Assembly: GCF_001457615.1 (NCBI RefSeq)
Contig: NZ_LN831024.1
Location: forward strand, 840,001-872,000
Reading direction: 5' to 3'
DNA length: 32,000 nt
Source: Pseudomonas aeruginosa
Lineage (GTDB): Bacteria; Pseudomonadota; Gammaproteobacteria; Pseudomonadales; Pseudomonadaceae
Positions 20,872-22,307 of the stretch are shown one piece after another. A model generated the notes under the pieces. It ran no database searches. It saw only the letters and a program-made list of their open reading frames with translations, and was not told the DNA's origin. The position numbers and the translations under genes were made by a program. Numbering within the stretch: the first letter of the stretch is position 1; every line of letters starts with the position of its first letter.

Positions 20872-20899
20872 TTGACAGCCCGGCACAGGCGCGTAGAGT
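20872..20899 (+). promoter_or_regulatory. Candidate sigma70 promoter upstream of tyrS
   Basis: TTGACA (20872-77), a 16-nt spacer, then TAGAGT (20894-99). Caveat: the implied transcription start (~20906) would make the leader ORF essentially leaderless. Confidence 0.4.
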
Positions 20900-20906
20900 G
20901 CCGCGC

Positions 20907-20963
20907 ATGAATCGTGCAGCCCTGACCTTCAAGCGCTACTACGCCTATCTGCTCCCTCATTGA
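20907..20963 (+). CDS. Putative 18-aa Tyr-codon-rich leader peptide (MNRAALTFKRYYAYLLPH) upstream of tyrS
   Basis: My own translation: ATG at 20907 to TGA at 20961-63. Tyr codons sit at 20937-42 (TAC TAC) and 20946-48 (TAT). It lies 105 nt upstream of the tyrS start. It is below the ORF-track size cutoff. Confidence 0.4.
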   Translation: MNRAALTFKRYYAYLLPH

Positions 20964-21066
20964 GGCGGTAGATGCGTCGCTGCATTCCCGAACCGCCCGA
21001 GGCGGCGGTCCGGTGAACTCCCTCCCAACCTGTCTCCTCGGGCATCCACCGTCCCAAAGGAGATAC
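20934..21066 (+). promoter_or_regulatory. Attenuator-like set of mutually exclusive helices plus an SD-sequestering helix in the tyrS leader
   Basis: Segment 1 (20934-45, covering the Tyr codons) can pair imperfectly with segment 2 (20964-76). Segment 2 GGCGGT (20964-69) pairs with segment 3 ACCGCC (20992-97). Segment 3 pairs with segment 4 GGCGGT (21004-09). Separately, TGTCTCCT (21031-38) pairs with AGGAGATA (21059-66), which contains the tyrS Shine-Dalgarno. Confidence 0.35.
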
Positions 21067-21068
21067 CC

Positions 21069-22307
21069 GTGTCCGTCCCGACCCATCAGCAAGACCTGAT
21101 CGCCCTGCTCGAAGAGCGTGGCTTCGTCCACCAGTGCACCGACCGCGACGGCCTCGCCGCGCACCTGGCCGCCGGTCCGGCAACCGCCTACCTGGGCTTC
21201 GACGCCACCGCCGACAGCCTGCACGTCGGCCACCTGCAGGGCCTGATGCTGATGCGCTGGCTACAGAAGGCCGGGCACCGCCCGTTGCTGCTGATCGGTG
21301 GCGCGACCACCCGGATCGGCGATCCGAGCTTCCGCGATTCGAGCCGGCCGATCCTCACCGAGGCGCAGATCCAGGCCAATATCGACGGCATCGCCCGGGT
21401 TTTCTCGCGCTACGTCGAACTGCACGACGACAGCCTGGTGAACAACGCCGAATGGCTGGACGGCGTCGGCTACCTGGAGTTCCTCGACCGGGTCGGCCGG
21501 CACTTCTCGATCAACCGCCTGCTGACCTTCGACGCCATCAGGCAGCGCCTGGACCGCGAGCATTCGCTGTCGTTCCTCGAGTTCGGCTACACCCTGCTGC
21601 AGGCCTACGATTTCGTCGAACTGTCGCGCCGGCGCGGCTGCACCCTGCAACTCGGCGGCGCCGACCAGTGGGCGAACATCATCAACGGCGTGGAGCTGTC
21701 GCGACGCCAGGGCGGCGCCCAGCTGTTCGGCCTGACCATGCCGCTGCTGGCCACCAGTGACGGGCGCAAGATGGGCAAGTCGGCGCAGGGTGCGGTATGG
21801 CTCAACGCCGAGCGCCTGGCGCCGTTCGACTTCTGGCAGTTCTGGCGCAACTGCGATGATCGCGACGTCGGTCGCTTCCTCGCCCTGTTCAGCGAACTGC
21901 CGATGGATGAGGTGCGCCGCCTGGGCGCCTTGCAGGGCGCCGAGCTGAACGAAGCGAAGGTGGTCCTGGCCAATGCCGCCACCGCCCTGGCGCACGGCGA
22001 GCACGCCGCGCGATCCGCCGCCGATGCCGCGCGCGGGGTGTTCGCCGACGGTACGCGGGACAGCGGCCTGCCGGTGATGAAGCTATCCCGCGCGCGCCTG
22101 GCGCAGGGACTGTCGCTGACCGACCTGCTGCTGGAACACGCGATCCAGCCTTCCCGCAGCGCGGTCCGCCGCCTCGCCGCCGGCGGCGGCCTGCGCCTGG
22201 ACGGCACGCCGGTCAGCGATCCGGACGCGCCGCTGGCGGGCGAGGTCGACGGGCTGCGCTTGAGCCTGGGCAAGAAGCAGCATTTGCACCTGCGACTCGA
22301 GGATTGA
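21069..22307 (+). CDS. tyrS: Tyrosyl-tRNA synthetase
   Basis: Track ORF, 412 aa, with a GTG start preceded by AAAGGAGA. It has the HIGH motif as HVGH ([11 protein letters not shown]), the KMSKS motif as KMGKS, and a C-terminal S4-like domain. Confidence 0.95.

Follow-up and report, generated by a model that had tools for sequence, protein, structure and literature searches.

Leader-peptide attenuators belong to the textbook repertoire of regulators. In pheM-pheST of Escherichia coli, and likewise in trpL, pheL, hisL, leuL and thrL, an upstream open reading frame (ORF) contains clustered codons for the cognate amino acid, and in the pheM/trpL class the overlapping pairings 1:2, 2:3 and 3:4 of the leader RNA are read by the position of the ribosome. 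Here we analyze a leader with a similar layout that precedes tyrS, a gene for tyrosyl-tRNA synthetase (TyrRS), in a stretch of 32,000 nucleotides (nt) of the Pseudomonas aeruginosa genome (contig NZ_LN831024.1, positions 840,001 to 872,000; the entire stretch is hereinafter called the window, and coordinates refer to it unless another source is named). As in the case of pheM, the putative target is an aminoacyl-tRNA synthetase gene. A tyrosine-sensing attenuator at this position had been suggested by an inspection of the letters of the window (hereinafter the sequence-only reading). In a comparative study published in 2005, tyrosine genes were placed under T-boxes, and attenuators were assigned to His, Thr and Phe genes and to pheST (PMC1262725). 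Our literature search did not bring up any account of a Tyr leader peptide for a proteobacterial tyrS; a prior mention in a 2004 survey of proteobacteria is possible.

The short ORF upstream of tyrS, its Tyr codons, the position of its promoter and the complementarities between the segments of the leader are conserved among orthologous loci, and several of the helices covary. We consider it very probable that tyrS is subject to ribosome-mediated control by a leader peptide that senses tyrosine, and probable, with somewhat less assurance, that this attenuator acts on tyrS by translational attenuation through a relay of alternative RNA helices.

The tyrS leader and its relatives

The following features of the plus strand define the leader and the gene:

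20872-20899, plus strand: sigma70-like promoter, consisting of TTGACA (20872-77), a 16-nt spacer and TAGAGT (20894-99), the sole such site in 20000-21300
20907-20963, plus strand: leader ORF encoding MNRAALTFKRYYAYLLPH, with its TGA; the orthologous ORFs have an ATG start, C at position -1 and no genuine Shine-Dalgarno (SD) sequence
20937-20948, plus strand: putative regulatory Tyr codons TAC TAC (GCC) TAT, corresponding to clusters at codons 10-14 in 48 leaders; TATTAC is nearly invariant
21069-22307, plus strand: tyrS, tyrosyl-tRNA synthetase, the putative regulated gene, identified by PF00579, TIGR00234 and the coordinates of PA14_10420

The tyrS gene, which starts with GTG at 21069 and ends at 22307, matches the Pfam family tRNA-synt_1b (PF00579) and the TIGR00234 tyrS equivalog. 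By gene sizes and spacings, which agree exactly with the table published for strain PA14 (PMC3460626), it corresponds to PA14_10420/PA4138 (PA14 898671-899909); PA4139, PA4140, PA4141 and the PA4137 porin fit the same table, the window coordinate being the PA14 coordinate minus 877602. This tyrS is the second, weakly expressed TyrRS gene of P. aeruginosa; the other one, tyrZ (PA0668), has a mapped transcription start site (TSS) and is well expressed (PMC3460626).

The short ORF with three Tyr codons in four positions that the sequence-only reading had placed directly upstream of tyrS is indeed present. It comprises 18 codons, from ATG at 20907-09 to TGA at 20961-63 (ATG AAT CGT GCA GCC CTG ACC TTC AAG CGC TAC TAC GCC TAT CTG CTC CCT CAT TGA), and is separated from tyrS by 105 nt; the Tyr codons, TAC 20937-39, TAC 20940-42 and TAT 20946-48, are codons 11, 12 and 14. 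When all six frames of the 32-kb window are considered, at least three Tyr codons within four occur in just two clusters, and the number of such clusters expected by chance in the 200 nt upstream of tyrS is approximately 0.0004. The second cluster, at 22929 on the minus strand (TAT TAC TAC GGC), belongs to the ordinary coding sequence of an OprD-family porin gene. The leader folds better than shuffled sequences (z = -2.8). A scan of 20000-21300 for intrinsic terminators yielded no terminator-like site, and a scan of 20300-21300 against Rfam, at the gathering score and at E up to 10, yielded no relevant match, the T-box and the amino-acid leader families included.

The comparative set consisted of 80 loci encoding TyrS relatives in species-representative genomes. 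At 48 of these, the region upstream of tyrS contains an ATG-initiated ORF of 16-23 codons with two to four in-frame Tyr codons at codons 10-14, so that the comparison by which the sequence-only reading had proposed to judge its claim came out in its favor with respect to the ORF, the frame and the Tyr codons alike. The Tyr cluster takes the forms YYAY, YYYY, YYSY, YYGY, FYY and YY, and the other residues of the peptide drift. Carriers are Pseudomonas, Stutzerimonas and allied genera; the leader was also identified in Massilia, Pseudoduganella, Caldimonas, Thauera, Pseudothauera and Methyloversatilis and, in a shorter YY form, in Telmatospirillum and Thalassospira, and it accordingly spans three proteobacterial classes (gamma-, beta- and some alphaproteobacteria). 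A 49th leader, from Azospirillum (L073), where the tyrS start codon could not be placed, is not among the 48. In the loci L051-L079, mostly from Rhodobacteraceae and with TyrS proteins of 51-56% identity, neither a Tyr-rich upstream ORF nor a match to the family covariance model (see below) was found, and the element appears to end at a clade boundary inside Alphaproteobacteria.

In one Pseudomonas clade (L011-L019, L022, L026, L032, L039 and L047), Phe-Tyr-Tyr (TTC/TTT TAT TAC) replaces YYxY, and the RNA segment that includes the last Tyr codon (segment 1, see below) consists of this codon followed by CGCC or GCC; these leaders may have acquired an additional sensitivity to Phe. At two Pseudomonas loci discussed below as lacking the element, L040 and L042, a small hairpin located about 95-80 nt upstream of tyrS (CTACCTATCGGTAGG) resembles the 1:2 pairing (CUACC:GGUAG) and could be a relic or a coincidence. 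A pattern scan of metagenomes with GGCGGTAG..CCNNNCCGCC..GGCGG proved too unspecific in GC-rich DNA to judge whether the element is exclusive to tyrS: three of 80 loci were genuine, each with a YYxY leader followed by tyrS, and the remainder were chance matches. One chance match recurs in the metagenome contigs L105, L117, L118 and L136, where it lies in the 3' end of a 119-aa ORF (...EVVLTYVRR*) that is followed by a GC-rich hairpin, in L105 and L117 by a terminator, and bears no relation to tyrS.

The promoter is conserved as well. All 48 orthologous leaders contain a TTGAC-16..18-TAnnnT promoter whose -10 hexamer is 6-8 nt away from the ATG, and the base at position -1 of the ATG is C throughout (48/48). 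SD-like strings 5' of the leader ORF occur in 4 of the 48 leaders, each time within the -10 hexamer, and a genuine SD was found in none. The sequence-only reading had counted the promoter abutting the ATG and the poor SD as weaknesses of its proposal; both are real, but they are properties of the whole family (48/48). Because the spacing of the promoter to the ATG is conserved and an SD is absent in all 48 cases, the leader ORF probably starts at the first transcribed nucleotide or within 1-2 nt of it, that is, would be leaderless. Two unnamed minus-strand genes of PA14, PA14_10400 and PA14_10410, map to 20443-20960; PA14_10410, which overlaps the tyrS promoter and the leader ORF, may be a mis-annotation.

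Pairing segments and their covariation

Alignment of the leaders reveals six consecutive RNA segments that are able to pair as 1:2, 2:3, 3:4, 4:5 and 5:6. In the window, these are:

20946-20958, plus strand: segment 1, which comprises the final Tyr codon and the bases 3' to it (CCGCC-like in the family) and forms the minimum free energy (MFE) helix with segment 2
20964-20971, plus strand: segment 2, GGCGGTAG, nearly invariant as RNA and complementary to segment 1 and to the CCGCC of segment 3
20972-20985, plus strand: P2 (AUGC-GUCGCU-GCAU), a small hairpin separating segment 2 from segment 3, with all 4 pairs changed on both sides
20987-20997, plus strand: segment 3, CCCGAACCGCC, which can form 6 bp with segment 2 in the window, or pair with segment 4
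20998-21013, plus strand: loop and segment 4, CGA-GGCGGCGGTCCGG, an SD mimic (anti-anti-SD) that can enter hairpin 3:4 or helix 4:5
21030-21043, plus strand: segment 5, the anti-SD CTGTCTCCTCGGGC, a possible partner of either the SD (5:6) or segment 4 (4:5)
21058-21065, plus strand: segment 6, the tyrS SD AGGAGATA, which can be sequestered by 21031-38

The pairings put forward by the sequence-only reading were found, some of them at shifted positions. The complementarities of GGCGGT (20964-69) to ACCGCC (20992-97) and of the latter to GGCGGT (21004-09) are both in the sequence. The 1:2 pairing exists; the version that used 20934-45 is a weaker alternative, the best one joining 20946-58 with 20962-74. 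Similarly, the helix of TGTCTCCT (21031-38) with AGGAGATA, thought to occlude the tyrS SD, can form, with one G-U pair; its 3' strand had been placed at 21059-66 and is actually located at 21058-65. What had escaped that reading is the SD mimic in the loop and the 3' arm of 3:4, which links the attenuator to the SD hairpin. The helix 4:5 that the mimic makes possible joins 20995-21008 with 21030-21043.

In the consensus of the family, segment 2 is GGCGGUAG, segment 3 is CCGAUCCGCC, and segment 4 consists of a 3-4-nt loop and GGCGGNUCGG; a C-rich spacer, segment 5 (GUCUCCUC(R)GGC) and a short variable inner hairpin follow, and segment 6, AGGAGAC, precedes the tyrS start by about 5 nt. The consensus register of 3:4 corresponds to CCGCC 20993-97 with GGCGG 21001-05. 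Compared with all other members of the family, segment 4 of P. aeruginosa contains an extra GGC (GGCGGCGGT, at 21001-21009), because of which two registers of 3:4 and a longer 4:5 are available in this species.

Segment 2 shows how the peptide and the RNA are superimposed. In 41 of the 48 relatives, the UAG of this segment serves as the stop codon of the leader; in the window it is out of frame. The C-terminal RR* or GW* of the peptides could be traced to the invariant RNA motif GGCGGUAG / GGUGGUAG (GGCGG/GGUGG). In the window and in five other leaders, a UGA stop lies just 5' of this motif and the motif is retained nonetheless; because it is kept even where the ORF ends before it, the motif must be selected as RNA. 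A distance of 19-28 nt separates the first Tyr codon from the downstream segment 2 in 47 of the 48 leaders, and the stop codon is located inside segment 2 or adjacent to it. The geometry is therefore consistent with that of classical attenuation. The median energy of the 1:2 duplex is -15 kcal/mol over the 48 leaders, and a Tyr codon is part of it in each case.

Both the topology of pairings 1:2, 2:3 and 3:4 and the SD-occluding helix, which the sequence-only reading had noticed in the single sequence, are conserved in the family, with compensatory changes in 3:4 and 5:6. In a covariance-model alignment, the structure expected to keep tyrS silent (P2, 3:4 and 5:6; hereinafter the OFF structure) has 86.2% of its cells paired, and 12 of its 21 pairs show double changes; none of 500 shuffles reached the observed values, and slid controls gave 34-43%. 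Compensatory changes were detected in five pairs of helix 3:4, whereas helix 5:6 is 89% paired and has three covarying pairs. The competing helix 4:5 has 87.5% of its cells paired and a covariation score of 0.223, compared with 0.160 for shuffles (0/500 reached the observed score). Together, 4:5 and 5:6 are 86-89% canonical across the family, above the shuffled and slid controls, and native 4:5 duplexes are more stable than species-swapped ones (-12.6 versus -10.7 kcal/mol), with the native 4:5 and 5:6 winning in 5000 of 5000 permutations. Individual cases illustrate the compensation in 4:5: in L027, segment 4 CAGGGAAC faces the anti-SD GUUCCCUG, with the SD being AGGAAAC; in L033, UCAGGGGA pairs with UCUCCUGA; and in L030, CCCAAGG pairs with CCUUGGG. 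The core of 2:3 is canonical in 100% of the 46 distinct sequences, with one A:U compensation (L031).

The family covariance model matches the window once, at 20934-21071 with 83 bits, and also retrieves members outside the training set (L046, L080, L054, L106, L128 and L140). An all-against-all covariation scan was not relied upon: its top-scoring pair, 115:170, is part of helix 4:5, and clade-linked pairs such as 53:170 scored equally high. RNAalifold recovered only fragments from the raw alignment because of the competing structures and a local misalignment at P2.

A proposed relay and its rivals

The specific form of control that we tentatively favor, with somewhat better than even confidence, is a leaderless, kinetic relay of the six segments. 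A sigma70-type promoter would start the transcript at or next to the leader AUG, and ribosomes would translate the ORF from a leaderless mRNA. As long as Tyr-tRNA(Tyr) is plentiful, the ribosome would reach the stop codon and cover segment 2; without any translation, 1:2 would pair instead. In both cases, the local hairpin 3:4 would form first and segment 5 would then pair with the SD, leaving tyrS untranslated (OFF). A ribosome stalled at the Tyr codons would mask segment 1, so that segment 2 could capture segment 3; segment 4 would remain free until segment 5 is made and would then form the long helix 4:5 with it, leaving the SD unpaired and allowing TyrRS to be produced (ON). The choice would probably be kinetic and co-transcriptional, with the fast local 3:4 winning unless segment 2 already holds segment 3, and 4:5, once formed, would offer no toehold to the SD strand. 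Leaderless initiation, stalling and the order of the folding events up to the release of the SD are steps that we infer from these conserved features. In the OFF state, the untranslated C-rich leader and the 5' region of tyrS would be open to Rho or to decay, which would account for the observed changes at the mRNA level; polarity due to Rho, or decay of the RNA, probably constitutes a second layer of control.

Published expression data bear on this scheme indirectly. In PA14 treated with tobramycin, tyrS is up 37.7-fold in RNA sequencing (RNA-seq) and 11.5-fold in ribosome profiling (Ribo-seq), the Ribo-seq change being the largest in the transcription/translation list of that study (PMC8120321). 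Expression from a tyrS::lux fusion, very low at baseline, rises strongly in response to Mg-chelating extracellular DNA (eDNA) (bioRxiv 10.1101/850446). Loss of MiaA in PA14 lowers the decoding of UAC and UAU and derepresses trpL attenuators, with tyrS being unmentioned (PMC13434334), and a Salmonella miaA mutant over-produces TyrS (bioRxiv 10.64898/2026.09.09.750475). The tobramycin, eDNA and miaA data are compatible with a sensor of ribosome speed, and none is specific to it.

Several observations weigh against the relay. The induction by tobramycin and eDNA is indirect evidence, as the same data show increases in many translation genes, and differential RNA-seq (dRNA-seq) of PA14 in standard culture detected no TSS for tyrS (PMC3460626, Wurtzel 2012). 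In the Pseudomonas tyrS orthologues L020, L029 and L040-42, the element is absent. The OFF structure was the one to which the covariance-model alignment had been fitted; the 4:5 signal consists partly of one-sided, clade-following change (U/C with A/G) and is inflated by phylogeny; and the 2:3 core is only 5-7 bp long and almost invariant, so that covariation is uninformative on this helix. Finally, equilibrium folding with ribosome masks (free, Tyr-stalled or at the stop codon) leaves the SD of almost every orthologue paired whichever state is modeled, and forcing 2:3 has a median cost of 5.7 kcal/mol and does not free the SD.

A purely thermodynamic switch was dropped given that neither the ribosome masks nor the forced 2:3 opened the SD; the relay could therefore open the SD only if folding is under kinetic control. 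Helices 3:4, 4:5 and 5:6 are of comparable strength, and in transcripts that end before the SD strand, 4:5 is already the MFE structure in about 30 of 46 sequences, whatever the ribosome mask. At full length, the 4:5 and OFF conformers are equally stable in P. aeruginosa and in no other member, the two being within 0.5 kcal/mol of each other in the window sequence. In the window, a ribosome at the Tyr codons favors 4:5 (-44.2 versus -42.6 for 3:4 plus 5:6) and one at the stop codon favors OFF (-32.8 versus -31.4 for 4:5), so the equilibrium support for release of the SD upon stalling is marginal and confined to the window sequence.

The output of the attenuator might instead lie in transcription. 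Rho-dependent attenuation as the primary output, where the position of the ribosome would set the loading of Rho and the SD hairpin would merely assist, appears unlikely, even though the composition of the leaders suits it: C exceeds G in all 48 (35% versus 24.5%), the median C/G ratio of the leader ORFs is 1.8, the GC skew over 20900-21199 is -0.22, and no intrinsic terminator is present. The response to tobramycin points the same way, with the 38-fold rise in tyrS mRNA exceeding the rise in ribosome footprints. However, no conserved rut or boxA-like motif was identified in the leaders; strong conservation and covariation are found in the helices of the SD, the anti-SD and the SD mimic, which argues for control of initiation; and a closed SD would by itself bring about polarity, making Rho more likely a consequence than the switch. 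A classical attenuator of the trp/pheM type, with 3:4 as the intrinsic terminator and 2:3 as the antiterminator, would account for the classical 1:2 / 2:3 / 3:4 topology and codon geometry. U-rich tails do follow 3:4 in L028 (ATTTATTT) and L004 (GTCGTTTT), and in Thalassospira (L080, positions 2375-2404 of that locus) the equivalent of 3:4 with its U-rich tail scores as terminator-like, the SD-sequestering helix being found there as well; termination may be used in these lineages. In the window, by contrast, TGAACTCC comes after the stem, and no terminator was detected by the scan. The lack of a U-tract after 3:4, already conceded by the sequence-only reading, holds family-wide, with three or fewer U in the 8 nt after the stem in 45 of the 48 members, and favors a translational or Rho-dependent output. 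Intrinsic termination, which would also leave the conserved SD mimic in 3:4 and the covarying 4:5 unexplained, was rejected on this ground and is improbable for the family.

Two further explanations would deprive the ORF of its role as a sensor. Under the first, the ORF is incidental and the RNA is an operator for a ligand or a protein, such as a tyrosine riboswitch or an autoregulatory tRNA mimic bound by TyrRS, which gates the SD hairpin. The invariant GGCGGUAG does contain GUA, the anticodon sequence of tRNA-Tyr, the SD-sequestering helix resembles the expression platform of translational riboswitches, and TATTAC is conserved at the nucleotide level beyond codon degeneracy. All the same, every one of the 48 leaders retains the ATG, the frame, the length of the ORF and the Tyr codons in frame, while the flanking codons vary freely, the promoter is positioned on the ATG, the five helices leave no conserved unpaired pocket, and no Rfam family, T-box included, matches, so that an operator of this kind is highly improbable. 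A trans-acting function of the small peptide encoded by the ORF can hardly be entertained: the length and position of the ORF are conserved, but within the peptide this holds for the Tyr cluster alone, the C-terminal residues follow the RNA motif, and the ORF of the window ends before that motif. This candidate was rejected because conservation is limited to the Tyr codons. The reading we retain is the Tyr-sensing leader peptide, with the relay to the SD as its probable output.

Surroundings of the locus and comparison with known systems

Between PA4139, whose TSS lies at 20433, and the tyrS promoter, there is an AT-rich stretch of 450 bp (20400-20860; GC 0.43-0.53, compared with about 0.68 around it). 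Two 99-aa ORFs on the minus strand, at 20011-20310 and 17478-17777 (PA4139 and PA4141 by position), have double-glycine-type leaders (MQLATLQELSFDEIDQVSGAG and MKELNDIEVTCVSGG, respectively), the second ORF (MKELNDIEVTCVSGG) being Gly-rich, and flank a cholesterol-oxidase-like gene. They adjoin PA4142-44, which are listed in PA14 as a secretion protein, a toxin transporter and an outer-membrane protein, and together these genes look like a bacteriocin or microcin-type cluster. PA4139 and PA4141 show no detectable similarity to each other, and neither matches an NCBIfam or Pfam family.

If the proposed control is correct, it would explain why the TyrRS encoded by PA4138 is nearly silent in culture and strongly induced by an aminoglycoside; it further predicts that defects in tRNA modification are linked to tyrS expression and that TyrRS-targeted inhibitors would themselves induce the backup enzyme. 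The element combines three unusual features, namely a probably leaderless leader ORF, a proposed output through a relay that sequesters the SD instead of through a terminator, and a spread over three proteobacterial classes. Whether it amounts to a previously undescribed RNA family, in which a leaderless Tyr leader and a six-segment kinetic relay would control a stress-inducible TyrRS from Alpha- to Gammaproteobacteria at translation initiation instead of transcription termination, making tyrS of P. aeruginosa a sensor of tRNA-Tyr charging, of tRNA-Tyr modification (MiaA, queuosine) and of ribosome-targeting antibiotics, is in our estimate an evenly balanced proposition. The family is a possible addition to Rfam that could be used in genome annotation.

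Compared with the pheM/trpL class, the tyrS leader differs in the amino acid that it would sense, in that its 3:4 is not an intrinsic terminator, and in the lack of a match to the Rfam leader families; moreover, the element adds an anti-SD and an SD, which would make its output translational, and its leader ORF is apparently leaderless rather than SD-driven. Leaderless leader peptides are unusual in Proteobacteria. The Cys-rich upstream ORF attenuators of mycobacteria combine a leaderless short ORF and clustered regulatory codons with control of downstream genes, and they belong to a different phylum, respond to a different amino acid and have a different RNA architecture. The T-box of tyrS in Firmicutes likewise turns tyrS on when tRNA-Tyr is poorly charged, and Bacillus subtilis, too, has both tyrS and tyrZ. 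However, the T-box binds uncharged tRNA directly, with no need for translation, and the leader described here has no T-box match. With the Rho-dependent leaders tnaC and mgtL-mgtA, the tyrS leader shares an ORF without an intrinsic terminator and a C-rich composition, but no rut or boxA was identified in it and the conserved parts are the SD, anti-SD and SD-mimic helices.

In its predicted output, the element resembles ermC, cat, cmlA and SecM-secA, where a ribosome stalled on the leader remodels the hairpins and makes a sequestered SD available. Unlike in these systems, the stall at tyrS would result from a shortage of charged tRNA at hungry codons rather than from a drug or an arrest peptide, and the relay would be one layer longer, with the SD mimic held in 3:4. 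The tyrS element is thus attenuator-like without a classical terminator, has a predicted SD-relay output like that of ermC and secM-secA, and is apparently leaderless.

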